Source: Candidatus Woesebacteria bacterium (GTDB taxonomy: Bacteria > Patescibacteriota > Microgenomatia > UBA8517). From it: DNA of 64,000 nucleotides. The stretch covers positions 337,833 to 401,832 of the forward strand of contig CP055308.1 in the NCBI GenBank assembly GCA_013374855.1, given 5' to 3'. Numbering within the stretch: position 1 is the stretch's first letter; each line of letters begins with the position of its first letter. Below are positions 1 through 44,744 of this stretch, piece by piece. The position numbers were made by a program, and so were the translations under genes. A model generated the notes under the pieces. The model was not told the origin of the DNA. It made no database searches and was given only the letters and a program-made list of their open reading frames with translations.

Positions 1-833
1 ATGTAAGGGATTTGGTTTAATATTTTGGGCATACCAAACAGAATAATCTTAAGGTGTGAGGTAATATAAGACGGGTTGACTAAGCCTTTTTGGTACCAAG
101 GTTCATCAAATATATTTGGTATTAATGCATATCCTTTGTCTAGAATGGTTCCAAATCTTAAGTAATTATAGATGCTGTTGAAAAGAAAAAATGGTAGTAT
201 TCCTGATAATAATTTTAGAATATTTTTGGTGTTTTTTTCTTTTAGGTTAAAAATAAAAAAGGGAATTGAGATTATTGTGTGAACACGGCTTAGGTAGGCT
301 GATCCAACAAGAACACCTATTAAGAAGGAATTTTTATTCTCTAATAATTTTTCTATAGCAAGGAGAAGAAAAAGGCAGGCAGTGGTTTGGCCCAGATACC
401 AAGAGGAGCCGACAGAGGACATATACCAGATAATGCTTCCTGTTCCTATCATAAGGGAAGATAAAATGGCGAATTTTTGATCCCTCTTTATTTTCAGTGA
501 TATTCTATATATTGAGGTGGCTATTAAACCTCCAATTATGTGGGCTAGGAATTGTTGTTGGAAAAGATCGCCGAGAATTGCTCTAAATGGCAAAAGCAGT
601 ATTGCCGGCATTGGGGGGTGGACAATATAGAATCTTCCGTTATTTGGAATAAGTTCTGAAAACCATGGAGGGTTTTCCTCAATCCAATATTTTCCTTTCA
701 AAAAAGCATCAGCGAGGCGGGAGAAATAATCGTAGGGAGTTTTGCCTGTTGAGGTAAATGTGTAGAGAAGAAAATTGAACAAAAAAATTAGAAATTGAGA
801 AGTGCTTTTATTTTTTATTACCTTTTTGAACAT
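1..833 (-). CDS. Polytopic membrane glycosyltransferase, GT-C fold, PMT/ArnT (GT39-like). Start codon at 833..831; the C-terminus runs off the window edge.
   Basis: The minus-strand frame is continuous from the ATG at 833 to position 1. The protein is hydrophobic and multi-pass, with an HPPMPAILLLP motif resembling the HPPL.K loop of PMT/ArnT-family enzymes. It is divergent from the neighbouring GT gene. The ORF track does not list it because it is truncated by the window edge. Confidence 0.5.
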   Translation of the reverse strand, partial: MFKKVIKNKSTSQFLIFLFNFLLYTFTSTGKTPYDYFSRLADAFLKGKYWIEENPPWFSELIPNNGRFYIVHPPMPAILLLPFRAILGDLFQQQFLAHIIGGLIATSIYRISLKIKRDQKFAILSSLMIGTGSIIWYMSSVGSSWYLGQTTACLFLLLAIEKLLENKNSFLIGVLVGSAYLSRVHTIISIPFFIFNLKEKNTKNILKLLSGILPFFLFNSIYNYLRFGTILDKGYALIPNIFDEPWYQKGLVNPSYITSHLKIILFGMPKILNQIPY

Positions 834-891
834 ATTTTATGATATATCTTTTTTGGTTTATTTTGTTTTATAATAGCTTGATTTTTTTAGA

Positions 892-3321
892 ATGAAAAAG
901 GCTTTTTTTAAGTACAGATTGTTAATTTTATTTTTTTCTGCTTTATTTTTAAGATTAGTTCTTTCTTTTTTTGGAACTTATGAGGGAGATTTTTATACTT
1001 TTATTGGCTGGAGTTTTCGTTTGGTATCAAGACCGTTGCCTGATTTTTACAAAGAATGGTCTGATTATTTGCCTGGATATCTTTACATACTTTATATTCT
1101 TGGTCGGATAAGACAAACTTTTGCTTTTATTCCAAATGAGATTCTTTATAAGTTTCCTGCTATTTTTTCTGATTTACTTGCTGGTTTGTTGGTTTATAAG
1201 ATAGTTGCGGGTTTAAAGAATAAAACGATTGCTTTTTGGGTTTCTATTGCCTATCTTTTTAATCCTGCTGTTTTTGCTAACTCTACTCTTTGGGGGCAGG
1301 TAGACTCACTAACTGTTCTTTTTCCTTTGCTTTCACTTTATTTTTTTAACATTTCTTTGCCATTTTCTTCATTTTTTCTTGCTTTTGGTGCTTTAGTTAA
1401 AGTACAAGCAGCCTTAGCTTTTATTCCTATTATAATTTTGTTTTGGAGAAAAGGATTGGGTTTTTACAAGCTTGTTAATTATGGCACTATTTCTGTTCTT
1501 ACGATAACTATTCTATTCTTGCCGTTTTTACCTTTTGGCAAGGATCTGGTGGATTTGCCGTCCTTTATCTTAGAAAGGATTGGTGCAACACTTGGGCAGT
1601 ATCCCTATCTTTCGGTGAACGCTTTTAATTTTTGGGGCTTATCTGGTTTTTGGGAGCAGTATTCTGATTATTTTCCAAACATTTTTCCAATTTTCATTTT
1701 ATTATTTGTTTCTTTTCTTCCTTATTTTAGAGCAAGAAACAAGGAAGGTCTGGAATATGTTGTTTTATCTTTGGTTTTTGCTGTATCTTTTCTTTTTTTT
1801 CCAAGAATGCATGAGCGTCATATGCTTCCTCTTTTTGCTCCCCTTGCTATATCTTGTGCTTTTTACCCCTTACTGTGGATAGTTTATTCCTTTTATTCCT
1901 TTTTTTATTTACTTAACCTTCGTTACGCTTTTGTTTGGCTGACAGAAGAAAGAAAAGAGATATTTACCAAACTTGAGATTAATTTGATTATTGTTCTTCT
2001 TCTTGTCCTTTTTGTTTTTTGGCTTTGGGTTGTTTGGCAGGACAAGAGAGATAACTTTTTTAAGAATATTGCTAAGTATTTCGGAAGATTTAGGAAAAAT
2101 TTTTCTGAAGACTATAAATTTCCCAAGTTTAATATAAATTCTAAAAGGGCTAAGTTTTTTTTGATTTTGATCTTAGTTTTTGCCTTTTTCTCACGGGTTT
2201 ATCAGTTGGGAAGACCTCAGCGAGAGTATTTTGATGAGGTCTATCATGCTTTTACAGCTCGGCTTATGCTTAAAGGCGATCCTAAAGCATGGGAGTGGTG
2301 GAATCCACATCCGGAGGGTTTTGCCTATGAGTGGAGCCACCCCCCTTTAGCAAAGCTGGGGATGCAACTAGGTATGCTTGTTTTTGGAGAAAACGCCTTT
2401 GGCTGGAGGCTTCCAGCTGCTTTGCTTGGCACGTTGTCGGTTCTGTTGGTTTATCTTTTGGCAAAAGAAATTTTTAAAGATTATCTTGTTGGTTTATTTT
2501 CAGCTTTGGTGTTCTCTCTTGATGGGCTTTTTTTGGTGGCGAGCAGGATTGGGATGAATGATATTTATGTTCTGTTTTTTTCTTTGCTTTCTATATATCT
2601 TTTTATTAAAGATAAATATTTCTTTTCTGCTTTGGCTTTGGGTCTTGCGTTTTCTTCTAAGTGGAGTGCTTTATGGGTTTTACCTATTCTTGTTTCTTCA
2701 TTCTTTGTCTTCAAAAAGAGGGTGGCTCTTCCTTATCTTTGGTTTTTGGTTCTACCACCTCTTGTCTATGTTTCAAGTTATACTCAAATGTTTTTGACTG
2801 GACATTCTTTTGATATTTTTTGGGGAGTGCAAAAACAAATGTGGTGGTATCATACAGGACTAGAGGCAACTCATCCTTACACCTCACCTTGGTGGAGCTG
2901 GCCGTTTTTGTTACGACCTGTTTGGCTTTACACGAATTCTTTTCCTGACGGAAAAGTGGCAAATATTTACTTTTTAGGCAATCCTGTTGTTTTTTGGTTT
3001 GGTGTTTTAGCTGTGTTTTATTCTCTTTATCTTTCATGGAAAAATAGATTTAAAAAACTTGCTTGGGTTATTTTTTCTTATTTTGTTTTCTTTGTTCCAT
3101 GGGCAGTTGCTCCTCGCATTATGTTTTTGTATCATTATCTTCCTAGCGTTCCTTTTATGAGTATGGTTTTGGGTTTTGTTTTAAGAAGAGATTTTGATAA
3201 GGCTTTGATATTTTTTACAATTGCCGCTTTTGTCTTTGCTTATTTTTACCCCCATCTTACAGGTATTCCCATAACAAAAGCTCTCGATATTTCTTACTAC
3301 TGGTTTGATAGCTGGCGTTAG
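892..3321 (+). CDS. Two-domain polytopic membrane glycosyltransferase. The C-terminal half is a protein O-mannosyltransferase-like (GT39/PMT) domain; the N-terminal half is a second GT-C-like membrane domain.
   Basis: The 809-aa product has many TM helices. Its C-terminal half carries the PMT hallmarks YFDEVYHAFTA and HPPLAKLGMQLGMLVFGENAFGWRLP, matching the FDEVH / HPPL-K loop-1 motifs of GT39 enzymes. Confidence 0.7.
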   Translation: MKKAFFKYRLLILFFSALFLRLVLSFFGTYEGDFYTFIGWSFRLVSRPLPDFYKEWSDYLPGYLYILYILGRIRQTFAFIPNEILYKFPAIFSDLLAGLLVYKIVAGLKNKTIAFWVSIAYLFNPAVFANSTLWGQVDSLTVLFPLLSLYFFNISLPFSSFFLAFGALVKVQAALAFIPIIILFWRKGLGFYKLVNYGTISVLTITILFLPFLPFGKDLVDLPSFILERIGATLGQYPYLSVNAFNFWGLSGFWEQYSDYFPNIFPIFILLFVSFLPYFRARNKEGLEYVVLSLVFAVSFLFFPRMHERHMLPLFAPLAISCAFYPLLWIVYSFYSFFYLLNLRYAFVWLTEERKEIFTKLEINLIIVLLLVLFVFWLWVVWQDKRDNFFKNIAKYFGRFRKNFSEDYKFPKFNINSKRAKFFLILILVFAFFSRVYQLGRPQREYFDEVYHAFTARLMLKGDPKAWEWWNPHPEGFAYEWSHPPLAKLGMQLGMLVFGENAFGWRLPAALLGTLSVLLVYLLAKEIFKDYLVGLFSALVFSLDGLFLVASRIGMNDIYVLFFSLLSIYLFIKDKYFFSALALGLAFSSKWSALWVLPILVSSFFVFKKRVALPYLWFLVLPPLVYVSSYTQMFLTGHSFDIFWGVQKQMWWYHTGLEATHPYTSPWWSWPFLLRPVWLYTNSFPDGKVANIYFLGNPVVFWFGVLAVFYSLYLSWKNRFKKLAWVIFSYFVFFVPWAVAPRIMFLYHYLPSVPFMSMVLGFVLRRDFDKALIFFTIAAFVFAYFYPHLTGIPITKALDISYYWFDSWR

Positions 3322-3324
3322 TGC

Positions 3325-5190
3325 TTACAGAATTAGGGCAAGAGATATTATTATTAATAGAATACTTATCGTCATTCCCATCATTGTTGGTGTGGAGATA
3401 CCAGCATCTGGTAGAGGTTCATCTTCAGGGGTTGGAGTAGGTATAAAAGTTGGTCTTGGTGTAGAGGTTGCTGTGGATCTTGGTCTGGGTGTAGGTGTTT
3501 CTTCCTCAGGTGTAGGTGTTGGTGAAGGTCTGGGTGTAGGTGTTTCTTCCTCAGGTGTAGGTGTTGGTGAAGGTGTTGCCTGTTCCAAATCGAAGTACAG
3601 CGGTGTACATGCATCCTCCGATGTCTCACATGGGAAAAACTTTATTTCCGTTCCTGTCCAAAACACTTCGGAATTGTTTACTAATATTCCATGATCCCAT
3701 TGGTAGAAACCGCAGATGTTATTTATTATGGAAAATGTTGCTGTTTTGGTTTCTCCCGGTCCTAATGTAATTGTTTCCTGACTAGTGAAATATGGAGGAT
3801 TGTTTCCGTAAGAAACCAGAGTTTGCGAGTCGGTACAAGTTTTTATGTTTTTTTCTTTGTAGTAGTTACAGCTTAAAGCACCAGCGCCTTTTTCGGTTGC
3901 CAATCTTTCCTGCCCTCCTGATGGATCATGTGGTGGTACGGCTGGGTTGTCAAAGCAGTGATTTGCATTCCAAAAGATTTTTCCGTTGTGGACTATTGCT
4001 CTCCTTCTATATTCCTTTCCACCCCGCCATATGCTTGTATAATACCAATTTCCTACTATGTATCCATCTACCTGCCCTTGGATATCCCCTTCGCCCGGGA
4101 GAGAGGATAATTCTGCAGGTCCTTTCCATGTGGTATCGCTATCCCATTTTGGGGCTCCATTTTCTATTGGTATCTGTCTTGAATAACCATTGTTATTACG
4201 CCAAAAAACTTGGCCAATGTGAGGCTGGTTTTGGTTAAATGTGACGTATTGATGTAAACTCTGGAATCTACCGTTGCCGGGATATTTACTTATGTCTATC
4301 TCTTCCCATCTGAACTTATTTCCTTCCCAAGGCACGTCTGGTGTGTTTATAGGCATTACTCTTCTATAAGCTTTTGTTATATTGTTTGTTTCTCTCCATA
4401 TTTCTTCATAGATTGTGGAGTTAAATTCGAATATTGCTTCGGCTATTACGTCTCCTGTGCCAGGGTAGTTGCTTGTATTAATCTCTTTCCATTCACTCCA
4501 CTTTATATCAACTTGTTCATCCCCTCTCGAGGTACTATCAACAATAATACCACTCCTTTTGTAGTTTTTATTTCCTATCCACATTGATTCCCAAATTGTT
4601 CTTGTCTTTTCAACCCTAAAGCTTGATCCTGCACTTGGCACCCCATTGGCAGGCAGTTCTATGTTTTGCGGGCCACTCCATTCTGATTGTACTCCCTCGT
4701 AAAAAATCTGAGTAAACTTTCGATAAGCCTCTTCCAAGTTTCCACCACCTTGTGTTCGGATAAATTCATTTATATCCTCCGGATAGTAGAGGTCTGTACA
4801 TTTTCCTACAGGTAATCCAATGGTGTACATCTTATAGGGGAAGGCTAGTAGTCTCAGTGTTAAGTTTTGATTCGTTTTGTTTGTAATAGTGTATTTTTGT
4901 GTTAGCACTCCACCTGTTACTGGTCTTGCATCTGTTTGCCCGCCAGGCTTAAAGTAAGTATGAGACTCATAATTTCCCGGTCCTGTGTCAACAACAGTAA
5001 CCTTTAGTTTTTGGCTTTCAAGTATTGTGCCTGATGGTGCTGCTTCACTTTTTTCTGGTGTTGTAGGGGCAACAGGCTTTTGCCTTAGTTTGTACAATCT
5101 GATAGATATAAAAATTCCCAACCCAGAAAGGATTAACAACAGAAAACTTAATATTATTAGTTTAATTTTCTTTTTTTTCGTGTTTTCCAT
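3325..5190 (-). CDS. Large cell-surface protein with an N-terminal signal-anchor TM, a Pro/Thr-rich tandem-repeat linker, and a C-terminal sorting signal LPDAGISTPT followed by a TM.
   Basis: The 621-aa product begins MENTKKKKIKLIILSFLLLILSGLGIF. Its C-terminus reads ...TPSPTPTPEEETPTPRPSPTPTPEEETPTPRP...EPLPDAGISTPTMMGMTISILLIIISLALIL. It is the last gene of the minus-strand operon. Confidence 0.7.
   Translation of the reverse strand: MENTKKKKIKLIILSFLLLILSGLGIFISIRLYKLRQKPVAPTTPEKSEAAPSGTILESQKLKVTVVDTGPGNYESHTYFKPGGQTDARPVTGGVLTQKYTITNKTNQNLTLRLLAFPYKMYTIGLPVGKCTDLYYPEDINEFIRTQGGGNLEEAYRKFTQIFYEGVQSEWSGPQNIELPANGVPSAGSSFRVEKTRTIWESMWIGNKNYKRSGIIVDSTSRGDEQVDIKWSEWKEINTSNYPGTGDVIAEAIFEFNSTIYEEIWRETNNITKAYRRVMPINTPDVPWEGNKFRWEEIDISKYPGNGRFQSLHQYVTFNQNQPHIGQVFWRNNNGYSRQIPIENGAPKWDSDTTWKGPAELSSLPGEGDIQGQVDGYIVGNWYYTSIWRGGKEYRRRAIVHNGKIFWNANHCFDNPAVPPHDPSGGQERLATEKGAGALSCNYYKEKNIKTCTDSQTLVSYGNNPPYFTSQETITLGPGETKTATFSIINNICGFYQWDHGILVNNSEVFWTGTEIKFFPCETSEDACTPLYFDLEQATPSPTPTPEEETPTPRPSPTPTPEEETPTPRPRSTATSTPRPTFIPTPTPEDEPLPDAGISTPTMMGMTISILLIIISLALIL
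3482..3571. repeat. Perfect 45-bp tandem duplication (two copies) inside the PT-rich linker coding region; each copy encodes a 15-aa PT-rich unit.
   Basis: The unit ggtctgggtgtaggtgtttcttcctcaggtgtaggtgttggtgaa is seen twice back to back, with a degenerate third copy upstream. Confidence 0.8.
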
Positions 5191-5197
5191 TTTTTAA

Positions 5198-6394
5198 TTA
5201 ATTAATGTCTCCTATCCACCCTATGCCCTCGTGGTAGATAGCCGCTTTTACAGTAAAGTTGACCACACCTTCTGGTATTTTGTATTGATAATAAATTTCC
5301 TTCTCTTCTGGATTATCTGTTGGTTTTTCTTTTGAGGCATCGACTTCTACAGGATTTTCGTTATTGACTTTAAACTTTGCCTTTTTAAACATGTTTGGGT
5401 TTTTTGACTTTCCTGTTATTGTAAAGTAAACTGTATCACCCGGTTTCAGTTTTGATAAGGTTTCACTATTAAGTAATCTCCAATTATTATTTTCCATTTG
5501 ATAGGCTTTTACATCCAGACATTCGACACTACTATCTTGCTTCTCGCTTGATATTGTTCTTACAACACAGGCAGGCATAGGAACTGATATTGGTTGCCCT
5601 TCCTTTTGAAAGTATGCTGTTATAGAAAGGTTTGAGACTACCTTGCCTGTTAGCTCGTCTTTGACGAACAGTTCCTCGTAACGTAGTGTTCTTTTACCTT
5701 CAGTTCTGGGTTCTTTATTTGGGTCCTCAAAAATTAAAAGATGGCTTCCTGGCGGACATATGTCTTGAGCTGTTGTTATGTCTCCTCCATCTTTTACACA
5801 AACAGGTTTTGGGTTGTTTTCAGGTGGAGGATCGTATAGGTTATCCATGTTGTATACTGCATACATAAAATAGTTTGCAGGTTCTTTAGATGTAGAAGTT
5901 ATGGTGATAGTTTCACCGGGTTTTAATGTTTTCTTGTTGACGTTAGCACTTTGACAGAGATCTGGCCTTTGTGGTGAGGGTGTTGTTTGTGGTGTATTGG
6001 GCTTTCCACGGCAACATCCCTGACACATACCCTTTTTCTTGCATGTACCGTCATCGTTGCATAGTCTGTCTATTATTTCATCACATTTGTCTGTAGCTGC
6101 CTTTTCTCTTATGTTTTGAGATTGTTGGCTAAGATAAACCCCGGTTCCTAATCCTCCGATCATAAGAAGCAATCCAAGTATTGTAGCTATTATTTTTCTT
6201 TTTCTTGTAGATTTTTTCTTGCTAGTAGTGAATGAAATAGTGTTTGGAACTTGATAATTATCTGTACTTGGATTTTGGGGTGCGTTTGGGTTTTCCTTAT
6301 CTTGCAAAGGTGGTATATCAACAAGTGGATCATTATTGACGGGAGCTTGTGGGCTATTATTAACATTTAAATGATTTACTTTATTTTGATCCAT
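5198..6394 (-). CDS. Membrane-anchored Cys-rich surface protein with the TM-QQSQNIREKAA N-module and CARDB/Ig-like beta-sandwich repeats. It has no C-terminal sorting signal.
   Basis: The 398-aa product has a basic patch KKKSTRKRK, then the TM IIATILGLLLMIGGLGTGVY, then LSQQSQNIREKAATDKC. A Cys-cluster follows, and LKPGETITIT / LKPGDTVYFTIT beta-sandwich signatures are present. Confidence 0.7.
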   Translation of the reverse strand: MDQNKVNHLNVNNSPQAPVNNDPLVDIPPLQDKENPNAPQNPSTDNYQVPNTISFTTSKKKSTRKRKIIATILGLLLMIGGLGTGVYLSQQSQNIREKAATDKCDEIIDRLCNDDGTCKKKGMCQGCCRGKPNTPQTTPSPQRPDLCQSANVNKKTLKPGETITITSTSKEPANYFMYAVYNMDNLYDPPPENNPKPVCVKDGGDITTAQDICPPGSHLLIFEDPNKEPRTEGKRTLRYEELFVKDELTGKVVSNLSITAYFQKEGQPISVPMPACVVRTISSEKQDSSVECLDVKAYQMENNNWRLLNSETLSKLKPGDTVYFTITGKSKNPNMFKKAKFKVNNENPVEVDASKEKPTDNPEEKEIYYQYKIPEGVVNFTVKAAIYHEGIGWIGDIN

Positions 6395-6441
6395 ATATTT
6401 ATATTCCTACTTAATTTTTATTTTTGCAAGAGCTCTTTTGC

Positions 6442-7311
6442 TCAAAACACTATTGAAAAAAACGAGATTAGTATTAGCAGAATTCCTGTTGTTATACCTA
6501 AAAATGTGGGTGTGCTAACACCGGATTCTGGCTGTGGAAGGGGAGATGGTGTGGGTGTTTTTATGTTTATTTGTGTTTGGCTTGTTGGAAAGGGAGTGGT
6601 TGTTTTCTCTGGTTCTGTTGTATTTACCGGAGTTTTGTTACTTGGGGTGGGTGTTGTGGGCGTTTCTGTAGGTTGACTTGATTCTACTTTGTAATTTCCT
6701 GTGCTTGATGGTGTAAGGAGAATATCTTCTCCTGTTGTTTTGTTGGTTGCTTTTGTAGTAGTGGGCTCAAATACTAGAGTGATTGATCCTGGGTTATAGC
6801 CTTTGAAAGTAATAGTGGCAAGAATTTCTTCACCCGATGTCTTATATCCGGTGGTTGAGCTGTTTAGCCCACCAATACGGATTTCTGCTAAACCATCTGA
6901 AGCATCGTAGGTCTTTATTGGAAAGTTCCAACCCCCGTTAACTAAAAGGTTAGAATTAATTTGGATATTTTCTGCTTTTATTGGAGGTTCAGGGGAACTG
7001 TATTGATATGTTAGATTTATTGTAAGGGCTGATATGTAATTACCCGCAGTATCAATGAGTATATTTACATCGAAATTTTCATCCTTTTTGATAGTTTTAG
7101 TCTCTGGTGAAAGAAATACTCTCACTGTGCCTGTTGGCGTGGCGGCTTTTTCTCTTATTTCTTGATTCTTTTTGACCAAAATTATACCTATCGCTGTTCC
7201 GACCACAAGCGAAAGTATACCGAGAGTTATTAGTGCTATTTTTCCTCTTTTTCTGTTTTTTCTTTGGGTGATTATCTTATCTTCTTCCATCGTAAATTTA
7301 TTTGCCAACAA
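6442..7311 (-). CDS. Cohesin-like domain surface protein (scaffoldin-like) with an N-terminal TM-KNQEIREKAA module and a C-terminal PT-rich linker plus PQPESGVSTPT-TM sorting signal.
   Basis: The 289-aa product has a central ~130-aa segment FDVNILIDTAGNYISALTINLTYQY...GLAEIRIGG...SGEEILATITFKGYNPGSITLVF with a cohesin-type beta-sandwich pattern. The cohesin domain is approximately at 6744..7140. Confidence 0.55.
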   Translation of the reverse strand: MLANKFTMEEDKIITQRKNRKRGKIALITLGILSLVVGTAIGIILVKKNQEIREKAATPTGTVRVFLSPETKTIKKDENFDVNILIDTAGNYISALTINLTYQYSSPEPPIKAENIQINSNLLVNGGWNFPIKTYDASDGLAEIRIGGLNSSTTGYKTSGEEILATITFKGYNPGSITLVFEPTTTKATNKTTGEDILLTPSSTGNYKVESSQPTETPTTPTPSNKTPVNTTEPEKTTTPFPTSQTQINIKTPTPSPLPQPESGVSTPTFLGITTGILLILISFFSIVF

Positions 7312-7861
7312 TGAAATTCAGTTCTTTTCCGGAGTTATCTATAATTTTAGTTTCTTCACTTACGGCTATATTTTCCTTTTCAAATTCTTTACCAATATCT
7401 ATTGTTGCTAAAATCACTTCTTGATTGTTTCCAATTGTTAGTTTTTCTCCAATTATTACCCCTCCTAACTTGAAAATAGTTTTGTTTTCTTTGATCTCTA
7501 CATTTTTGATAGGAAATATGAAGCCATTTTTTGCAAGTTCGCTTTGGATTGATTGGTTGGTTAGGTTATATAAAGGTTCATCTAATATTACCTCCATAGT
7601 GAAAGCTCTAATATACTCTTCTTTTTCTCTAATGTTTTCGATAGAAATTATTATTTTTGTTTTTTCGGTCATTTTTGTCCTAAGTTTTAGTGGGGGTTCT
7701 TCTTGCGGAGGTGTATATATTTCTTCAATTTGTGTGTTAATGTTTTGCTCTTTTGGATACTCTTTTGATAAATATTTTGCTATGACACCAAACAAAGCAA
7801 CTATAAATATGGCCAGAGAAAAAGCAAGTGTTATATTCAAAGTTTTATTTCTGTTTTCCAT
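7298..7861 (-). CDS. Hypothetical N-terminally membrane-anchored protein in the surface operon.
   Basis: The 187-aa product has the N-terminal TM LNITLAFSLAIFIVALFGVIA. It is tightly packed between the dockerin and cohesin genes, with a 14-nt overlap with the downstream gene. Confidence 0.45.
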   Translation of the reverse strand: MENRNKTLNITLAFSLAIFIVALFGVIAKYLSKEYPKEQNINTQIEEIYTPPQEEPPLKLRTKMTEKTKIIISIENIREKEEYIRAFTMEVILDEPLYNLTNQSIQSELAKNGFIFPIKNVEIKENKTIFKLGGVIIGEKLTIGNNQEVILATIDIGKEFEKENIAVSEETKIIDNSGKELNFIVGK

Positions 7862-7866
7862 TTGTG

Positions 7867-9411
7867 TTAGTCTCCTTTAATGATAAATGATGACCAGTTT
7901 AAAGCAACAAGTGCTAAATCATCAATTGTGATATAACCATCTTTAGTTATGTCAGCCCCAATCATATTTTTATCTGATGCATTTACTTTTATTTTGAAGT
8001 CTGTATAGTATTTCAGTACGAGAGATATATCCTCTATGCTTATAATGTTGTCGTTGTTAGCATCTCCTGCTTTTAGTTCATCTTTGATGTCTGTGCTTTT
8101 GTCTATTATTGTATTGTTATTGCTTATTTGTACGTTGGCGAATTTTTTTCTAAGATGAGATACTCCTTTTATGTAAAGATTATAAGTACCGGCGGGGATA
8201 TTGTTTCCTTGTTCATCAGTTGAGAAATTAATTGTCCAGATTCCGTTTTCATCAACAGAAACGGGTGCTTGCCCGATCTTGTGAGTTTTCTCTTCGTTTG
8301 TAAGGGTGATGTAAGTATCTAATTGAGAGGGAATGTTTGATTTAATTTTTGTTGTAATCCCTTGTTGTCTGAAGAGAATTTTTATGTTTTCTGTGGGACT
8401 GCTTTTTGGGGAAACTGCTATTATCAGAGCATAATCATTAAAGTCGCATTCTGCTTTTTTAGCATAATCCCCCCAGCATTGTTGGGAGATAATTATTCCT
8501 CCCGAGCTTTGTGTCGTCTTGATTAAAGATGATACATCCTTTTCTTTGCACTTATTGTTTTCTGGTTTTATCCATCCTTCGAAGGGGTAAGGCCCACTAT
8601 CACTGCCAACGTCTTCTCCATAAATACAAAGTTTATCCCCGTTTTTGACTTGGACCCCCGTTACTATTACTTGATCCGTTTTTGTGTCTTTTGTGTCTAT
8701 CAATTTGTCATATTCGGTTAAACTGCAAGTTTGGCTGTTTTTCTTTAGGGCAATTTTGGGTGGGGTAGATTCTAAAAAGCTGGCAAAGGAAAGCAGGACT
8801 TCTCCATCGTTTTTTATGTCTAAAACTGTTGGATTTGGATTTTTATCGCAAGAGTTTTCACCTCCACCGCCTGATGATGTAGTACAAGTACATTTTGGTT
8901 TTCCATCGCTACCGCTTTGGTTTAAGGCAATGCATTTCTTACCACTTCCACAAGAATCTCCAGGATTTTTCCCTTGACATTTTGCAGCCGAAGCACTGCT
9001 GCATCCTGCTTGTGTTCCTCCACCACCTCCACCCCCGCCGCTACCTTGAGCCTGGATACATTTTCCATCTTGATATAAAGGTTTATCAGTGGGACAACAT
9101 GTTGTCAGACGTCCGCTTGTGGACATTATGCAATATATTGCTTCTGGTAAAGATTTGGGTAAATTGCAATCAGTGGCTGGGCAATAAGGATAGTCGCAGG
9201 CCGAGTGTTTGATGCATCTTTCTTGATTGCACATGTAACCTTTGGGGCAGCCAGCTCCAATTCCACAAAGACCTCTGTTGCCAGAATCACAGATCATCTC
9301 TGCCTTTTCTCTTATGTCTTGAGATTGTTGTGTTAGGACTATTCCAGATGTTGCTCCAATGAGCAGTAGGAGGGTGAAGAGGATTTTAATTATCTCTTTT
9401 TTTGTAATCAT
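7867..9411 (-). CDS. Cys-rich surface protein with the TM-QQSQDIREKA N-module, a poly-Gly run, a prealbumin-like beta domain and a C-terminal dockerin domain.
   Basis: The 514-aa product ends with two Ca-binding dockerin repeats, GDANNDNIISIEDISLVLKYY and ADITKDGYITIDDLALVALNW. It contains GGGGGGGG and many Cys. Its start overlaps the stop of the upstream gene by 1 nt. Confidence 0.7.
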   Translation of the reverse strand: MITKKEIIKILFTLLLLIGATSGIVLTQQSQDIREKAEMICDSGNRGLCGIGAGCPKGYMCNQERCIKHSACDYPYCPATDCNLPKSLPEAIYCIMSTSGRLTTCCPTDKPLYQDGKCIQAQGSGGGGGGGGTQAGCSSASAAKCQGKNPGDSCGSGKKCIALNQSGSDGKPKCTCTTSSGGGGENSCDKNPNPTVLDIKNDGEVLLSFASFLESTPPKIALKKNSQTCSLTEYDKLIDTKDTKTDQVIVTGVQVKNGDKLCIYGEDVGSDSGPYPFEGWIKPENNKCKEKDVSSLIKTTQSSGGIIISQQCWGDYAKKAECDFNDYALIIAVSPKSSPTENIKILFRQQGITTKIKSNIPSQLDTYITLTNEEKTHKIGQAPVSVDENGIWTINFSTDEQGNNIPAGTYNLYIKGVSHLRKKFANVQISNNNTIIDKSTDIKDELKAGDANNDNIISIEDISLVLKYYTDFKIKVNASDKNMIGADITKDGYITIDDLALVALNWSSFIIKGD

Positions 9412-10733
9412 TAGTTTGTAAAAAGCAGAACGCCACTTGCTGTAAACAATAGTAAACCGGCAAAAAGCAAAATTAAAGTAGGTGTTTTAACACCGGATTC
9501 GGGTTGGGCAGGGGTAGCTGATGGGCTTGCTATTTTTGGGGTAGGAGTGAAAGCAAGTGGTGTTGGTGTTAGACTTGCCGAAGGTGTGCTTTCAAAAGCA
9601 GGCTCATCTGTTTCTGCAGCTTTGATTGTAAAGTTTCTCACAATGTTTCTTAAGATTCCGTTTTCGTCACGATAGGTGATTGTTATTTTGTGCTCCCCTG
9701 GAGACAGATTTTTGGGAGGGGACCATCTCCAAGTACCGTCGGATGATGCTCTTATGGTATCGGAAATCGGGCTTTCGGATTCTACCTTAATTGTTATTTG
9801 TTCTTGGGGAGGAGCTTTTCCAAAAAATTCTGGTTTGGTTGTGTAAATTGTTTCTCCGTCTTCTATGCTTTCAAGAGATACCGTTTTGTTTGTAGTTGTG
9901 TTTTTTTCATTTTCTTCAATGTCAAACCTTGGTTTCTTGGTTTTTTCTTCTGGTGTTTCAATTTCTGAGCTTGGCAGAGAAGCTTCTTGGTTTGTTGTTG
10001 TAGATGTTATGTTTGTAAAGTCGTGGTTTTCTCCCAATATCATTGGTGGGAGAGTTAAACCTGTTGCTAAATAAGCTTCTGCGGTTGATATTCCTTGGGG
10101 TCCTGCTTGAGCAATGATGGAGACTTTGAGGTTGGAAACTGATTGGAGATAATTACTTAAATTGCTGTCTAGAAGAGAGTTAATATTTATTATCCAATTG
10201 CCATTTCCTGATGTTGTAGTTGATAGAACTTGCGCTCCCTCTATGTTTAGGATTACAAGAATGTTTGTTGCTTCAGTTCCTGAAGCAGTGATGACTTTAC
10301 CTCCTATTCTTATATTGTCTGATGACGCATTGTTGAGTGGTGGTGCTGTCTTAACTTCCCATGCTTTTTGATTGTTGTCATACGTCTTGTCGTCTGAGAT
10401 TATTTTGAAAAAGTAATTTTTGTTTGGGGAAAGTCCTGAGATAGTTGATGAGTGTACAAAGCTTTTGCCTTCTATTTCATCTAGTGCTGTTTGGTTTAGA
10501 TTGTTTTCACTTTCTCCCCATATAACAAAACCTGTTGTTCTTTGAGAAGTTGTCCATATTACAGAAAAAGATGAACTTGTTATGTTTGTAATTTTTACAT
10601 CTTGAGGAGGATAATTTCCTTCAGCGCCAAGCCTAAATATTTGCCTTTGTTTGACAAGAATTACAGCTATGGGTAAACTTGTTATAAGCAGGAATAACCC
10701 GATTATTGTTGGTATTCTTATTTTGTCCATCAT
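9411..10733 (-). CDS. Fibronectin type III domain surface protein with the variant N-module TM-VKQRQIFRLGAEG and the C-terminal sorting signal AQPESGVKTPT followed by a TM.
   Basis: The 440-aa product has an FN3 signature PPQDVKITNITSSSFSVIWTT...GFVIWGE...ISGLSPNKNYFFKI, located at about 10358..10610. The C-terminus reads ...PAQPESGVKTPTLILLFAGLLLFTASGVLLFTN. Confidence 0.7.
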   Translation of the reverse strand: MMDKIRIPTIIGLFLLITSLPIAVILVKQRQIFRLGAEGNYPPQDVKITNITSSSFSVIWTTSQRTTGFVIWGESENNLNQTALDEIEGKSFVHSSTISGLSPNKNYFFKIISDDKTYDNNQKAWEVKTAPPLNNASSDNIRIGGKVITASGTEATNILVILNIEGAQVLSTTTSGNGNWIININSLLDSNLSNYLQSVSNLKVSIIAQAGPQGISTAEAYLATGLTLPPMILGENHDFTNITSTTTNQEASLPSSEIETPEEKTKKPRFDIEENEKNTTTNKTVSLESIEDGETIYTTKPEFFGKAPPQEQITIKVESESPISDTIRASSDGTWRWSPPKNLSPGEHKITITYRDENGILRNIVRNFTIKAAETDEPAFESTPSASLTPTPLAFTPTPKIASPSATPAQPESGVKTPTLILLFAGLLLFTASGVLLFTN

Positions 10734-11092
10734 TACTCCTCATCGATTTCATATTCACCTGTAATTTCATTCCTTTCAACAGGCTCTATTGTAGGCGAGG
10801 GGGTTTCCGTTTTTGGTGTAGGAGTGTTTTGTATGCTAACTTCTTTTGGGGTGGGGTTTGGTGTTTTAATTATTGTTTCCTTGAAACCGCCTTCTTCAAA
10901 GTGTTTTTTATTCTTTATTTTTTCTATTACTTCAAGTCCTACGTTTGGATCAACAGGTTGTATAATTTCTGGAGGAACAACAACAGGCAGAGGTTTTTTG
11001 AAAGTTTGGTAGATGCTATAAAATACCCAGCTTACCACAGTTATTGAGGTAAGGATTAGTGTAAAAACTGAATTTGGTAATTTTTTCGCCAT
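10733..11092 (-). CDS. Small Pro-rich membrane-anchored protein, in the PilP-like position downstream of pilO.
   Basis: The 119-aa product has an N-terminal TM and a PT-rich tail. Its start overlaps the pilO stop by 1 nt (TAATG), consistent with translational coupling. Confidence 0.4.
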   Translation of the reverse strand: MAKKLPNSVFTLILTSITVVSWVFYSIYQTFKKPLPVVVPPEIIQPVDPNVGLEVIEKIKNKKHFEEGGFKETIIKTPNPTPKEVSIQNTPTPKTETPSPTIEPVERNEITGEYEIDEE

Positions 11093-11820
11093 TATTGTTC
11101 TTTATCTATCATTTCCATATCTTCTTTTTTAGTGTTTTCTTGATTCTTTTTAATTTCTTTTTCTTTGCTTTCCATAAAGTATAATGCCTTTGCGTTTATG
11201 TTAAGGTTTAATGTCTCGCTATTAGAATCATCCTCGCTGTCTTTTTCTGGTTGCAGATTAAACTGATCGAATATTAGTATTCTTAAGAGGTTTTCGTAAG
11301 TTTGAATGGTTTTTATTAGATTTTCATATCGTCCTTTTATTGAAATACTTGTTTCAAAGTAGCTTGAATTTTCTGGTATTTTTGTTCTATCTACACCTAC
11401 ATTGGAATTGCCTGCCAAGATGATGTTTTTTGTGGATATTGATCTTATTTCAACTTCAGATTCATTTGAGGCAGCTTCGATTTGTCTTATTACTATCTCA
11501 GGGTCTGGTTTTGATGGCAAAGATGTGTCAAGCAAGGAAAGGCTACTTTCTTCTTGCGATAGTATTTGTTGTGCTTTTTGAAGATTTTTTATTTTTATAT
11601 CCATCTTTGACAAAGTCTCTTTTTTGGCTTTTATTTCTTTATTTATTTCTATTATGGTGTTGGCTGTTGGTTTCAAGGCAAAAACAGAAAAAATTACTAT
11701 TGCCAAGGATGTGAGTATTAATTCAACAAAGTTTCTAACATTTTCCTTTTCTTTGTAATAATTGTAGTTTTTCCAGAATAGGTTTTTGTATTGATTGTAC
11801 GTATTTCTCCAGCTTCTCAT
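11092..11820 (-). CDS. pilO: Type IV pilus assembly protein PilO-like.
   Basis: The 242-aa product has a short cytoplasmic N-terminus, one TM (LILTSLAIVIFSVFAL), a coiled-coil and a C-terminal domain (ISIKGRYENLIKTIQTYENLLRILIF) typical of PilO. It lies immediately downstream of pilN. Confidence 0.6.
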   Translation of the reverse strand: MRSWRNTYNQYKNLFWKNYNYYKEKENVRNFVELILTSLAIVIFSVFALKPTANTIIEINKEIKAKKETLSKMDIKIKNLQKAQQILSQEESSLSLLDTSLPSKPDPEIVIRQIEAASNESEVEIRSISTKNIILAGNSNVGVDRTKIPENSSYFETSISIKGRYENLIKTIQTYENLLRILIFDQFNLQPEKDSEDDSNSETLNLNINAKALYFMESKEKEIKKNQENTKKEDMEMIDKEQ

Positions 11821-11828
11821 ACTTTATT

Positions 11829-12419
11829 TTAATTTTCAGTTTTTTTCACTGGTATAGACAAACTGAATTTTAGTAGTTGACTATTTTCCTCGTCTGGTCC
11901 TATCTGTGACAGAGCGGTATTTTTGAATTCTTCTTGTGATTGAAGGTTAACAAGAATTTGAGCTATAGAATTTTCATCCTTTGCTATGCCAGAAATAGTA
12001 ATTTTTTCTTCGTTTAAGGCAATTGATGACAAAATTATTGTTGGAGGGATTTGACTTGTTAGTTTGCTTATGACCTCGGAAGGAATAATTTTGTTTGATG
12101 AAACCTCGCTTATGATAGAGGTTTTCTTTTGCACTTCTCTAATTCTGTTTTCGGTCTCTTTCATTGCTTTTATTTGTGCTTCTTTTTGTCTTATTTCTTC
12201 TGATAGGTCGGTGTTTTTAGCATCAAGCCAGAATCTAGACATGAAAGCGGAGATGACGAAAAGTTCAACTATTATTACCAGAGTTCTAAAAGTTGATAAG
12301 AACCAAACCAAGACTCTGCCTGCAGTTGTTTCTGAGAACTTGTCTTGAGGCAATAAATTTATTTGTTTTTCTTTCTTGCTTTTAAGGGCAGACATCAAAG
12401 AAATAATATCACAAAGCAA
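11829..12419 (-). CDS. pilN: Type IV pilus assembly protein PilN-like.
   Basis: The 196-aa product has the conserved N-terminal INLLP motif (the PilM-binding motif) followed by a TM, a coiled-coil and a periplasmic domain. Confidence 0.7.
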   Translation of the reverse strand: MLCDIISLMSALKSKKEKQINLLPQDKFSETTAGRVLVWFLSTFRTLVIIVELFVISAFMSRFWLDAKNTDLSEEIRQKEAQIKAMKETENRIREVQKKTSIISEVSSNKIIPSEVISKLTSQIPPTIILSSIALNEEKITISGIAKDENSIAQILVNLQSQEEFKNTALSQIGPDEENSQLLKFSLSIPVKKTEN

Positions 12420-20437: not shown

Positions 20438-21297
20438 ATGAAAAATCTGATTATTATGATATCTTAGGAGTTGGCAGAAATGCCTCGGCAGAGGAGATAA
20501 AAAAAGCTTATCGGAGGCTTGCTTTGGAATGGCATCCAGACAGACATAAAGATGATAAAGAGGTTGCTGAAAAGAAATTCAAGGAAATAAACGAGGCTTA
20601 TCAAGTCTTATCAGATCCTGAAAAGAGGGCAGCTTACGATCAGTTTGGTCATTCTGCTTTCTCACCGGGTGGGGCTGGGTTTTCTGGTTCCCCTTTTTCT
20701 CAATCCGGCCGCTGGGGTCCCTTTACTTATACTTATACTACCTCTGGCGGCTCTCCCTTTGAAGGTTTTGATTTTGGTGATCCATTTGATATTTTTGAAC
20801 AGTTTTTTGGGGGATCGCCTTTTGCAAGAACAAGAAGAGTTCCTCGCTATTCTATTACCCTTGATTTTATGGAAGCAGTTGAGGGTTGCGAGAAGGAAAT
20901 TGTAGTTGAAGGGAAAAAAAGGAGGGTAAAAATTCCAGCTGGTATTGATGAAGGATCACGCATTAATTTTGGCGACTTTATGCTTTCTGTGAATATCCGT
21001 CCACACCCAATTTTCGAGCGTGACGGAGCGGATGTTTATGTAAGAGTGAATATTCCCTACTCCTTGGCTGTTTTAGGTGGCGAAGTTGAGGTTCCAACCT
21101 TGGATGGGAGTGTTAAAGTGAGGGTAAGGGAAGGTACTAAGGCAGGCACACTGATGCGTCTTCGTGGCAGGGGCGTTAAGAGGTTGCGCGGTGCTGGTAG
21201 GGGCGATTTTTATGTAAAGTTTGATATTCTGGTGCCAGATAAGATAAAAGGTAATCAAAAGGCAGCGGTTCAGGCACTTAGAAAAGTAGGGCTTTAA
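20434..21297 (+). CDS. dnaJ: DnaJ-like co-chaperone (J domain, G/F region and C-terminal substrate domains) with no CxxCxGxG zinc finger; CbpA/type II-like.
   Basis: The product reads [32 protein letters not shown] and has a G/F-rich stretch. No Cys-rich Zn-finger repeats are present. Its start overlaps the clpB stop (ATGA). Confidence 0.8.
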
Positions 21298-22571
21298 ATT
21301 GCAAGAGCAATAGAGATTACCAAGAGCAGAATACTTATTCCGGTTCCTATTATGGTTGGGGTTGAACTACCAGCTTCAGGTAGTGATTCTTCCTTTACAA
21401 TTTGTTGTGGTGTAGAAGTAGGAGTTAATGTTTGTGTGATTGCTGTCCTTTCTGTTGGTTGAGGAGTTGGTGCATTAGTGGGTTGATTTGTATAGGTTGG
21501 TCCTAAGGTAGGTGTACTTGTAGGAGTAACTGTGGGAGATGCCGTTGGACTAGGACTTGGACTAGGAGTTGGGGTGAAGAGTAACTCACAAGTTAGTCCG
21601 GTCTGACAAAATCCATCTGGGCCTACATCAAGGCAAGCTCGTCTTGGCAGGCCTTCGCATGGATCTTTTGGAGGTCGTGGGCGTTTTGGAGGTTTTGTAG
21701 GTTGAGGCATTGGTGGAATTGTTGGTTCCGGTACCTCTGTGGGTGTAACCGTAGCGGTGGGTGTAGGCGTTGGGGGAAGTGTGGAAATGGGAGTCTCTGT
21801 GGGTGGCACTGGTGGTTCACAGTTTAGAACTCCAATATGTAGTCTTGTTTGATAAGAACCGCAGGCTTTTCCGCTTGTTGACTGGCTTGTGACAGTGATG
21901 GATTTTGATTCGTTGTGTCCCAATTCAAATGTCTCTCCCTTTGGCGGGTTGTTTGGATCGGGCTCGTCACATACTGGGTAGCCTTCAATAAATTCGCCAC
22001 AAGGGCTGTCGGGGCAGTAGTTTGATTCTGTAATTGTTCTTATTTCTGCCTTTTCATTCTCAAATCCCGGTTTGGCCTCGATAGTGATTGTCCATGTTGA
22101 GGAGTAGGAGGTTATGTTGTTTGTTTGTATTCCGTTGGGAGTACATTGCAATATTTGAGGACATTGAGTCTTTTCCTCCTCGCTGATGTAGACTTTGAAT
22201 TTTGCACAGTCTAGGACTTTGATAACATCCTCTGGTGGAATGAACGCTTTTTCTCTTATTTCTTGTCGTCTTTGGCTTAAGAATACTCCTGCTCCGATTC
22301 CCCCTGCCACTATCAGTAAGATTAAAATTGTGGCGATTATTTTCTTTCTGTACCTTGCCTTACTAGGTGGTTTTATGATGTTAGGCGCGAATGAGGAGGC
22401 AGAGGAGCCTGCGTTGGCCTTAGAAAAACCACTGCTACTTTTGCTACCTGTGTTGTGGGCTGGTATTACTTGTTGTTTTTCTTCCGGAGGCGGAGGAGGT
22501 GGTGGTATATCTGCCGTATCGGCAAAGAATGGGGTGTTATTATTGCTGTTCTCTTGGAGACTTGTTGCCAT
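21294..22571 (-). CDS. Surface protein with a long Pro-rich cytoplasmic tail, the [15 protein letters not shown]-module, Cys-containing beta domains, a PT-rich linker and the sorting signal [10 protein letters not shown] followed by a TM.
   Basis: The 425-aa product has an N-terminal region [35 protein letters not shown] paralogous to the 5198..6394 protein. Its C-terminus reads ...[31 protein letters not shown]. Confidence 0.7.
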
Positions 22572-44033: not shown

Positions 44034-44744
44034 GTGATTGATATGAACTTACCCAAGAAAACTTTATTAAGACTTGTTTTTTCTTTTTTGCTTGGTCTAG
44101 TTGGAGTTTTGATATTGGGTTTCACTCTATATCCTATAATTTCTTATGAATTAAATAATAGGAGCAGTCTATCTGGTTTATTATCTCCTGTGGTAGAGGA
44201 GGATGTGGATATCTTTTATGAAAAGGATTACACAAAGGCAAGTAACTGGTTTGTAGGTGGAGCGAAGATAGAGGATTTTTCTTTGCCTAAAGTAGCTTTT
44301 TATAATCTATCTATCCCGAAGCTTAGGATTGAGGATGCAGTTGTTGCAATAGGAGGAGAGGATCTTAATGAGCACCTAATCCAATATCCGGGTACTGCTT
44401 TGCCTGGGCAAGTTGGGAATGCGGTTATATTTGGTCACTCAATTTTACCCCGTTTTTATGATCCTAAAAATTACATTTCTATCTTCTCGCTCTTACCTAC
44501 TCTTGAAAAGGGAGATTCTATTTTTGTTGTTTATGATGGTATCGAATATTTGTATAAGGTTGAGGATATGTTTGAGGTCACCCCAAACGATATTCAAGTC
44601 TTGGAGCAAAATCGTTCTGACTCTTATCTTACGCTTGTAACCTGCACTCCACCTGGAGATCCTCGAAAGCCAAAAAGGCTGATTGTAAGAGCAAAGATAG
44701 TTTCCAATCAAGCGAATAAGCAGACAGAGAATCTTAACATATGA
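44034..44744 (+). CDS. Sortase (transpeptidase) with an N-terminal membrane anchor.
   Basis: The product has the catalytic His (NAVIFGHSI), the TLxTC Cys motif (YLTLVTCTPPG) and a downstream conserved Arg (PKRLIVRA), after an N-terminal TM. Confidence 0.85.
   Translation: MIDMNLPKKTLLRLVFSFLLGLVGVLILGFTLYPIISYELNNRSSLSGLLSPVVEEDVDIFYEKDYTKASNWFVGGAKIEDFSLPKVAFYNLSIPKLRIEDAVVAIGGEDLNEHLIQYPGTALPGQVGNAVIFGHSILPRFYDPKNYISIFSLLPTLEKGDSIFVVYDGIEYLYKVEDMFEVTPNDIQVLEQNRSDSYLTLVTCTPPGDPRKPKRLIVRAKIVSNQANKQTENLNI

Follow-up and report, generated by a model that had tools for sequence, protein, structure and literature searches.

The closest described relatives of the system considered here are the protein O-mannosyltransferases (PMTs) of Actinobacteria, which belong to glycosyltransferase family GT39. 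The enzyme of Mycobacterium tuberculosis selects proline-rich peptides containing Ser or Thr (PMC12331936), and actinobacterial GT39 enzymes can attach as many as 65 hexoses to the S/T-rich linkers of secreted proteins (PMC11727336). A preprint from 2026 added that a GT87-like protein, ML2687c/Rv0051, is recovered together with the mycobacterial Pmt on purification; this partner is said to have no catalytic residues. The same preprint notes a translational fusion between GT39 and GT87 enzymes in Paenibacillus (UniProt V9WAU2), which its authors read as a sign of general dimerization (bioRxiv 10.64898/2026.07.15.738315). Here, we describe a gene for an 809-residue protein in a stretch of 64,000 nucleotides of contig CP055308.1 from a Candidatus Woesebacteria bacterium (GCA_013374855.1, positions 337,833 to 401,832 of the forward strand; this whole stretch is called the window). 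Our preferred reading, held with a modest lean in its favor, is that this protein is a single-chain pair of membrane glycosyltransferases of the GT-C superfamily, in which a C-terminal PMT module would act on neighboring proteins carrying proline/threonine-rich (PT) stalks, and an N-terminal module would be coupled to it. As the family is annotated as GT39 and the GT39-GT87 pairing was described in the preprint, the architecture is already on record; the present case differs in its host lineage and in a GT87-like partner whose active site, as judged from alignments, appears intact.

The C-terminal module resembles actinobacterial Pmt (Rv1002c and the GT39 enzymes of Corynebacterium and Cellulomonas) in combining the PMT and PMT_4TMC domains in the absence of MIR domains, in the DE dyad of its first external loop, and in an HPY..W.WP segment and hairpin that precede the last four helices. 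The expected donor, polyprenyl-phosphate-mannose, would be the same, and the actinobacterial preference for Pro-rich Ser/Thr sequences and S/T linkers fits the PT-stalk neighbors of the window. It differs from actinobacterial Pmt in being fused to a second GT-C module, in its occurrence in a Patescibacteria/Woesebacteria-like host, and in its score on the actinobacterial equivalog model (68.2 versus 800 bits), whereas from eukaryotic PMT1, PMT2 and PMT4 it is set apart by the lack of MIR domains in the large loop. The physical coupling of a GT39 enzyme with a GT-C protein of GT87-like type recurs in the mycobacterial Pmt-ML2687c/Rv0051 pair and the Paenibacillus fusion, and the translational fusion itself is shared with V9WAU2, to judge from the published description of the latter. 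However, in mycobacteria the partner is a protein of its own and reportedly devoid of catalytic residues, while the module in the window keeps the candidate catalytic Asp, the Lys and the His-Glu pair.

Organization of the Two-Module Gene

The gene is an open reading frame (ORF) of 809 codons on the plus strand (892..3321), and it is divided as follows:

892..3321, plus strand: fusion gene with an N-terminal ALG6/PimE-like GT-C module and a C-terminal GT39/PMT module (ORF, Pfam, homologs, full-length model, Foldseek)
892..2040, plus strand: N-terminal GT-C module, residues 1-383 (AlphaFold2 model, Foldseek, profile alignment)
2041..2142, plus strand: Lys/Arg-rich linker, residues 384-417 (composition; low model confidence)
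2143..3318, plus strand: GT39/PMT module, residues 418-809 (Pfam, alignment, Foldseek)
834..891, no strand: AT-rich 58-bp spacer between divergent genes (sequence; promoters presumed)

A preliminary description of this DNA had reported two divergent genes for GT39-type membrane enzymes lying next to an operon for PT-rich surface proteins; it proved largely right for the 809-residue protein and overstated for the second gene, which is only partly contained in the window. The divergent transcription is as described, the two genes being separated by the 58-bp gap at 834..891. So is the convergence with a minus-strand operon (3325..12419) whose products include PT-rich proteins: only 3 bp lie between the end of the 809-residue gene and that of the operon's gene for a 621-residue protein. 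A scan of positions 600..3600 for promoters and terminators yielded matches no better than those expected from shuffled sequence, and a tRNA scan of the whole window found none. The nearest relatives of the protein are found in metagenome-assembled genomes (MAGs) of Woesebacteria and other Patescibacteria, under the NCBI name "glycosyltransferase family 39 protein".

The C-Terminal Module

Three Pfam models match the C-terminal half above their cut-offs, in agreement with the GT39 assignment of the preliminary description: PMT (PF02366; 53.4 bits versus 22.7, residues 426-604), PMT_2 (53.7 bits versus 26.1) and PMT_4TMC (PF16192; 76.1 bits versus 32.4, residues 641-808, spanning profile positions 3-202 of 202). 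Both PMT motifs singled out earlier are present in this half, FDEVYHA at residues 447-453 (nucleotides 2230-2250) and HPPLAKL at residues 483-489 (nucleotides 2338-2358). The DE dyad, D448-E449 (nucleotides 2233-2238), lies inside FDEVYHA in the first external loop and, in a phmmer search of the PDB, falls opposite the FDEVH of C. thermophilum Pmt4 and yeast Pmt1. D448, E449 and many loop residues are invariant among 30 homologs sharing 49-71% identity. Downstream, a HPYTSPWWSWPF segment and a beta-hairpin (residues 661-694) run into PMT_4TMC, and the HPY..WW.WPF segment before the hairpin is conserved among the 30 homologs compared. The hairpin that follows this segment has been implicated in the recognition of Pro-rich peptides (PMC12331936). 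No MIR domain was matched by Pfam in the 809-residue protein, and the corresponding loop (residues 657-697) is modeled as a short hairpin.

The AlphaFold model of the full-length protein has a mean predicted local distance difference test (pLDDT) value of 85.6, and the best Foldseek matches to this half are Pmt4, Pmt1 and Pmt2 (9i5k_A, then 9e61 and 6p25; E-values of 2.6e-12 to 2e-6). The first of these, at 2.6e-12, has a target-normalized template modeling score (TM-score) of 0.67 and a root-mean-square deviation of 3.8. By profile matches and predicted fold, then, the C-terminal half is a member of the GT39 family, of the bacterial type that lacks MIR domains.

The preliminary description had named, as a finding that would refute its view, membership of a lipid- or LPS-modifying family such as that of ArnT (GT83), which acts on lipid A. 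ArnT is also a member of the GT-C superfamily, and the PMT_2 model spans both ArnT-like and PMT-like proteins. However, ArnT ranks well below the PMTs in the fold search (E about 1e-4), as do the oligosaccharyltransferases (3e-5 or worse) and the Emb arabinosyltransferases, and the protein carries PMT_4TMC, of which we know no report in ArnT. Such a role was rejected, as this domain, the DE dyad and the fold ranking are all in favor of a PMT. Organisms of this kind are, moreover, generally described as lacking lipopolysaccharide.

The N-Terminal Module

The sequence of the N-terminal module (residues 1 to about 383) gave no Pfam match even at E≤10, the threshold of GT87 (PF09594) not being reached, and an NCBIfam scan assigned it no name. 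Its identity was derived from family profiles, built from an alignment of 14 sequences (A1) and a larger one of 66 (A4), and from a structure model. The AlphaFold2 model computed from A1 is confident (pLDDT 90.1, predicted TM-score (pTM) 0.89) and displays a GT-C fold, as the preliminary description had supposed for this half. Foldseek related it with a probability of 1.00 to ALG6, PimE, glycosylphosphatidylinositol (GPI) mannosyltransferase 1 (GPI-MT-I), ALG3 and oligosaccharyltransferase subunits, with query-/target-normalized TM-scores of 0.67/0.57 for ALG6, 0.61/0.61 for GPI-MT-I, 0.61/0.64 for ALG3, 0.63/0.65 for PIG-U and 0.56/0.59 for PimE. In profile searches of the PDB, A1 matched GPI-MT-I (E 6e-5), and A4 matched yeast ALG6 (6snh, E 4.3e-11) and GPI-MT-I (E 1e-9). 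A phmmer search of the PDB with one stand-alone relative (P0153) gave no match.

The A4 alignment places Asp33 (nucleotides 988-990), located in the first external loop, opposite the Asp of the ALG6 sequence YGDFEAQRHW, which is residue 87 of a 562-residue chain. We take this to be native Asp69, presuming an 18-residue tag on a protein of 544 residues. The "DYLP" of the module, K170 and H307-E308 likewise fall opposite the DYPP, K and HEK of ALG6. Besides Asp33, the conserved motifs of the module are WSDYLPGY (nucleotides 1057-1080), GQVDS (1294-1308), K170 (within 1396-1407) and RMHERH (1804-1821). Asp69 of ALG6 has been named as the catalytic base (PMC12653191). In PimE, a characterized GT87 enzyme, the first juxtamembrane helix carries the base, an Asp, at its tip, and a Lys and a His serve the phosphate (PMC12041525). 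The alignment of A1 with GPI-MT-I was discarded for the argument on catalytic residues, as its placement of a DxD was ambiguous, and A4 against ALG6 was used instead.

Conservation was counted in the best 150 of 8,100 representatives of the N-module family (clusters at 50% identity, E≤1e-3). Asp33 occurs in all 142 that cover the position ungapped, K170 in 148, and H307 and E308 in 137 each, R309 being near-invariant as well. Stand-alone relatives of about 400 residues exceed the Pfam GT87 cut-off of 25 (33.1, 29.0 and 31.5 bits), and several homologs carry a precomputed PF09594 annotation. From profiles and model we place the module among the GT-C enzymes of the type of ALG6, PimE and PIG-M and, because the invariant Asp33 lies opposite the catalytic Asp69 of ALG6, regard it as probably active. 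With ALG6 (GT57), Gpi14/PIG-M (GT50) and PimE (GT87), it shares a compact, all-membrane GT-C fold (TM-scores 0.56-0.67) and, with ALG6, an Asp at the position of D69. In contrast to these enzymes it passes no curated family threshold, and, while they extend lipid-linked glycans (the N-glycan precursor, GPI and phosphatidylinositol mannosides), the module in the window is tied to a PMT. An assignment to class GT-C_B was considered and dropped, since the PimE study puts both ALG6 and PimE in GT-C_A (PMC12041525); no subclass is claimed here.

Recurrence of the Two-Module Architecture

The preliminary description called the fusion unusual. It has indeed been little described, but the architecture is abundant among homologs. 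Among 986 significant matches there are at least 120 full-length Woesebacteria homologs of about 800 residues (49-71% identity, 95-100% coverage), and relatives of the N-module are encoded in 353 species-representative genomes. Within the best 150 representatives, 55 continue into a PMT half. The N-module comes first in every one of these, each has the DE dyad, and the linker ranges from 4 to about 500 residues; some of the proteins contain an inserted F5/8 type C domain. Another 87 are stand-alone, although some of these may be fragments. Literature searches on PMT or GT39 enzymes in the Candidate Phyla Radiation (CPR) or Patescibacteria found no paper, and one on glycosyltransferases of Woesebacteria found nothing relevant.

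The two modules are also met as separate adjacent genes, in two loci of Curtissbacteria type (L081 and L082) and in a third locus (L057). The gene that follows the PMT in L081 encodes a GT2 enzyme (PF00535, 117 bits) whose C-terminal helices are characteristic of polyprenyl-phosphate-sugar synthases, and L082 has a close homolog of it. Both loci (L081 1975..6735; L082 5934..12980) carry, on one strand, a gene for a 388-residue GT-C-like protein, the N-module (402-406 residues), the PMT (445 residues) and the GT2 gene; in L082 a YfhO-like gene of opposite strand is inserted after the 388-residue one. The Curtissbacteria-type loci represent the unfused form of the window's enzyme, accompanied by what is probably a synthase of its lipid-sugar donor. 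The recurrent fusion and the conserved adjacency are good evidence that the modules work together.

A separate family from MAGs of Lachnospiraceae, Butyrivibrio and "Clostridiales" (L085, L086 and L087) consists of proteins of about 1,040-1,130 residues with GT87 and PMT domains, laid out as in the window's protein. Here the modules are separated by an insert of about 400 residues, and the family counts 664 matches at E≤1e-10; the genes next to them are unrelated to surface proteins. Judging from these sequences, protein O-mannosylation machinery seems to be widespread in Firmicutes of the gut and rumen.

Topology and Proposed Mode of Action

The protein begins with a basic sequence (MKKAFFKYR), and the 34-residue linker has nine Lys or Arg against four Asp or Glu, its residues 397-407 being modeled with a pLDDT below 50. 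The linker is predicted to be cytoplasmic, in which case the loop with D33 and the loop with the DE dyad would both face outward. A mechanism relying on lipid-phosphate-sugars requires both loops on that side. A fixed intramolecular arrangement like that of Pmt1-Pmt2 is not claimed; the domains are confidently modeled, but the pTM of the whole chain is 0.58.

From the gene structure, the family of the C-terminal half, the N-terminal fold and its Asp, the recurrent fusion or adjacency and the features of the neighboring genes, we infer a donor sugar, an extension role and a set of substrates, as follows. Both modules would depend on lipid-phosphate-sugars, with their active-site loops outside the cytoplasmic membrane. 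With polyprenyl-phosphate-mannose as donor, the PMT module would attach a hexose (most likely mannose) to Ser or Thr in unstructured, proline-rich stretches of proteins emerging from the membrane. The N-module most likely works with it: in our preferred reading, it would extend the O-linked mannose by one further sugar, taken from a lipid donor of the same kind, and it would also provide the dimer partner that PMTs seem to require. Among candidate substrates, the most obvious would be the exported PT-stalk proteins encoded next door, which bear sortase-type signals. Given the taste of GT39 enzymes for Pro-rich Ser/Thr sequences and S/T-rich linkers, glycosylation of PT stalks is chemically reasonable, and by analogy with the actinobacterial enzymes their O-mannosylation is plausible.

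The Neighboring Surface-Protein Operon

In order of transcription, the operon encodes PilN-like, PilO-like, 119-residue, 440-residue fn3/Big_13, 514-residue, 187-residue, 289-residue, 398-residue and 621-residue proteins. These genes, together with two more distant ones, are listed below by coordinate:

3325..5190, minus strand: 621-residue exported surface protein with an N-terminal anchor, a PT stalk (residues 533-603, nucleotides 3382-3594) and LPDAG plus a hydrophobic helix
5198..6394, minus strand: 398-residue exported protein that belongs to a conserved family of Woesebacteria and lacks a strong PT tract
6442..7311, minus strand: 289-residue exported protein with a PT stalk (residues 204-271) and QPESG plus a hydrophobic tail
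7298..9411, minus strand: 187-residue and 514-residue proteins, the latter Cys/Gly-rich with a weak dockerin match
9411..10733, minus strand: 440-residue fn3/Big_13 surface protein (Pfam) with a PT/PA stalk (residues 380-409) and QPESG plus a hydrophobic tail
10733..12419, minus strand: 119-residue PT-containing protein, PilO-like protein (11092..11820) and PilN-like protein (11829..12419), promoter-proximal
21294..22571, minus strand: 425-residue PT-stalk protein with the same type of tail, 18 kb away
44034..44744, plus strand: sortase gene (PF04203, 90.9 bits versus a cut-off of 26.6)

PT-rich tracts, defined as 20-residue windows with at least 50% Pro plus Thr, are present in the 621-, 289-, 440-, 119- and 425-residue proteins, all with N-terminal membrane anchors, so that the long PT-rich linkers of the preliminary description are indeed there, the stretch of residues 533-603 in the 621-residue protein being an example. 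The C-termini of four PT-stalk proteins consist of LPDAG, LPEAG or QPESG, then xxTPT and then a hydrophobic helix. Comparable tails recur as LPx[SA]G...G.G.G...LLLAL* in 54 homologs and, in the fn3 family, as [LP]Px[TSA]G plus a helix and WKK in 64; a basic tail is common in the latter family but is absent from all four tails of the window, that of its fn3 protein included. The sorting-signal models of NCBIfam gave no match to the PT-stalk tails. As far as these motifs go, the tails look like a CPR-specific flavor of sortase sorting signals, often devoid of the basic tail, and the PT-stalk proteins look like wall-anchored surface proteins. The sortase encoded at 44034..44744, which stands apart from the glycosyltransferase locus, is likely to be the enzyme that processes LPx[SA]G-type tails.

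The PilN-like and PilO-like proteins both score past their cut-offs (47.7 and 36.2 bits, respectively), and among the surface proteins of the block the 440-residue fn3/Big_13 protein is the best conserved. The genes for the former two lead the operon, and no genes for PilM, a pilin or a secretion ATPase were seen nearby. About 59 of the 63 Woesebacteria loci keep the block formed by the PilN, PilO, 119-residue and fn3 genes, suggesting that their products form a dedicated and so far undescribed surface assembly.

Conservation of the neighborhood was assessed in the 63 Woesebacteria loci with at least 6 kb of downstream sequence. A PT-rich protein is encoded downstream of the fusion in 53 of them, a protein with a sortase-type tail in 58, and PilN/PilO in 59, and PT-rich genes make up 116 of 581 downstream genes versus 3 of 434 upstream. 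The surface genes directly abutting the fusion vary between genomes, yet they stay PT-rich with sortase-type tails, and in an unrelated locus (L048) a 1,346-residue protein with long PT tracts adjoins the fusion. The co-localization of glycosyltransferase and PT-protein genes, whose conservation the preliminary description proposed to check, holds in Woesebacteria but is missing from the Curtissbacteria and Lachnospiraceae loci. As evidence for a substrate link it is suggestive and no more, and gene order supports O-glycosylation of the PT linkers weakly.

Many of the MAG records that carry the Woesebacteria block (within L006..L084) are titled "uncultured Gammaproteobacteria bacterium", Methanosarcinales, Pseudomonadales or Alphaproteobacteria, and the taxonomy labels of these third-party (TPA) assemblies look unreliable.

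Alternative Explanations

Several observations weigh against the reading of the protein as a coupled pair that glycosylates its PT-stalk neighbors. The C-terminal half reaches its 68.2 bits on NCBIfam NF058602, the actinobacterial Pmt equivalog model with a cut-off of 800 bits, over residues 476-575 only, and being so far under the cut-off it is a divergent GT39 enzyme rather than an ortholog of Rv1002c. The whole-chain pTM given above means that the relative placement of the modules is not confident. Among the ORFs of the window that were scanned against Pfam, no polyprenyl-phosphate-mannose synthase was found. The characterized relatives of the N-module all act on lipid-linked glycans, not on proteins, and the GT87-like partner in mycobacteria, being reported without catalytic residues, offers no precedent for elongation (bioRxiv 10.64898/2026.07.15.738315). 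As for the neighborhood, nearly all of 80 loci share one long collinear block (UvrD-FemAB-UvrD-LCP-GT-Cs-fusion-surface genes-PilO-PilN-S20-MurJ-HrcA-GrpE-DnaK, LCP standing for LytR-CpsA-Psr), and for this reason they are not independent observations, and the Fisher p-value exaggerates the case; the adjacency may reflect inherited gene order rather than functional linkage. PT-rich neighbors were found neither at the Curtissbacteria loci L081 and L082 nor at the three Lachnospiraceae loci.

The last two points support the strongest competitor, which we regard as a real contender although short of an even chance: that the protein is a true PMT, but that its position next to the PT operon is inherited order, its substrates being spread over the genome as in mycobacteria. 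The further PT-stalk protein with the same tail encoded 18 kb away (21294..22571) fits this possibility. It accounts less well for the turnover of the abutting surface genes, which remain PT-rich and tailed, and for the pairing of a PT-tract protein with the fusion at L048. A different proposition, which we hold to be unlikely, is that the N-module is non-catalytic, a built-in second protomer of a PMT pseudo-heterodimer, as has been suggested for yeast Pmt2 or ML2687c/Rv0051, which would recruit acceptor peptides or stabilize the enzyme so that only single mannoses were attached. The mycobacterial heterodimer, whose partner is reported to be catalytically bare, and the interpretation given to the Paenibacillus fusion as general dimerization both speak for it (bioRxiv 10.64898/2026.07.15.738315), and the fixed order and variable linker of the fusions suit a tethered partner. 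However, a D33 found in 142 of 142 sequences and near-invariant K170, H307, E308 and R309 are unexpected in a pure scaffold, D33 aligns with the catalytic Asp of ALG6, and the stand-alone module is common (87 of 150, allowing for fragments).

We give similarly little weight to the idea that the acceptor is not a protein, and that the fusion, the 387-residue product of the divergent gene, a TMEM260-like protein and an LCP ligase together build or decorate a wall glycopolymer or lipoglycan, the PT proteins being irrelevant. An LCP gene, two FemAB genes and MurJ do lie nearby; related loci contain YfhO, DUF2298, PIG-V-like and GT2 genes typical of the extracytoplasmic glycosylation of polymers; and ALG6, PimE and GPI-MT-I work on lipid-linked glycans. 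Against this stand the PMT and PMT_4TMC matches past their cut-offs, the precedence of PMT folds over ArnT and the Emb arabinosyltransferases, and the conservation of the DE dyad and of the HPY..WW.WPF segment before the hairpin. To our knowledge, every characterized member of GT39 transfers mannose to Ser or Thr of proteins.

On balance, the single-chain pair acting on PT-stalk neighbors is the reading we retain. A more ambitious form of it, which we consider rather doubtful, is that Woesebacteria possess an O-glycosylation enzyme with two active sites (a PMT initiator and an ALG6/PimE-like extender) that, alongside an LCP ligase and the products of one to three additional GT-C genes, decorates sortase-anchored PT stalks. 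If it were true, the CPR would have its first system for protein O-mannosylation, the GT87-like partner of mycobacterial Pmt would descend from a catalytically active extender, and very small, uncultivated bacteria would be investing in dedicated glycosylation of surface proteins, which bears on how they build their envelope and attach to hosts. A PMT and an apparently active second GT-C module in one chain also lend independent comparative support to the proposed PMT/GT87-like pairing and suggest a testable role, glycan extension, for the GT87-like partner. For annotation, the 809-residue family should not be labeled simply "GT39", nor its 387-residue neighbor a PMT.

The Divergent Gene and the Genes beyond the Window

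1..833, minus strand: 5' part (277 of 387 codons) of a gene for a short GT-C-like membrane protein, with its start codon at 833 (translation, hhalign)

The preliminary description took the partial gene to be PMT/ArnT-like as well. The same contig provides the full product, of 387 residues, which belongs to a conserved Microgenomates family of about 385 residues, mostly labeled "hypothetical". The complete protein matched no curated Pfam model, the fragment reached 24.3 bits on PMT_2 (below the cut-off of 26.1), and just one of 30 family members matches PMT_2; a profile of the family found no relative in the PDB. On NCBIfam NF047440 (LA_3751/LA_3752 putative glycosyltransferase) the protein scores 42.8 bits versus a cut-off of 200, with an E-value of 3e-11. 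In hhalign, the family aligned with residues 427-630 of the fusion family's PMT half (95.3%, E 2e-8, 200 columns): HPP(L/M) was matched, but the PMT DE dyad fell opposite Ser38-Arg39. Hence the likeness stands at the level of the superfamily, while the GT39 label does not, as no threshold is passed and the DE dyad is lacking; on these alignments the protein appears to be only a distant GT-C relative.

The 387-residue family adjoins the N-module/PMT genes in most loci, including those of Curtissbacteria. Beyond the edge of the window, the same contig encodes a TMEM260-like GT-C protein, an LCP ligase, a UvrD-family helicase and two FemAB proteins. The TMEM260-like gene (474 residues, PF11028, 68.6 bits) and the LCP gene (98 bits) flank that of the 387-residue protein (L001 6286..8794). 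Animal TMEM260 is a protein O-mannosyltransferase; an hhalign comparison of the 387-residue family with the TMEM260-like neighbor detected no relationship (2.4%). In other Woesebacteria this position holds DUF2298 or YfhO-like genes or extra copies of the 387-residue family; between the LCP gene and the fusion gene there is a variable GT-C "cassette".

Additional Features of the Window

The 41721..43991 gene (plus strand), directly upstream of the sortase gene, encodes a 756-residue protein with a Baseplate_J-like domain (32.6 bits), and the ORFs scanned included no further genes of phage-like character.

Five exported proteins (5198..6394, 6442..7311, 7867..9411, 9411..10733 and 21294..22571, all on the minus strand) have, directly after the N-terminal membrane anchor, the motif Q-x-[I/F]-R-x-[K/G]-A (QNIREKA, QEIREKA, QDIREKA, QIFRLGA), which recurs 48 times in related loci and may be a processing or recognition site.

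Lastly, the window encodes a protein with a cohesin domain (35.5 bits; 26182..27237, plus strand) and two large proteins bearing dockerins (32.8 and 33.2 bits; 22665..26063 and 45142..47565, both plus strand), to which the weak dockerin match in the 514-residue protein (7867..9411, minus strand) can be added. By these domain matches, the surface proteins of this bacterium of small genome may be linked to one another by a cohesin-dockerin system.

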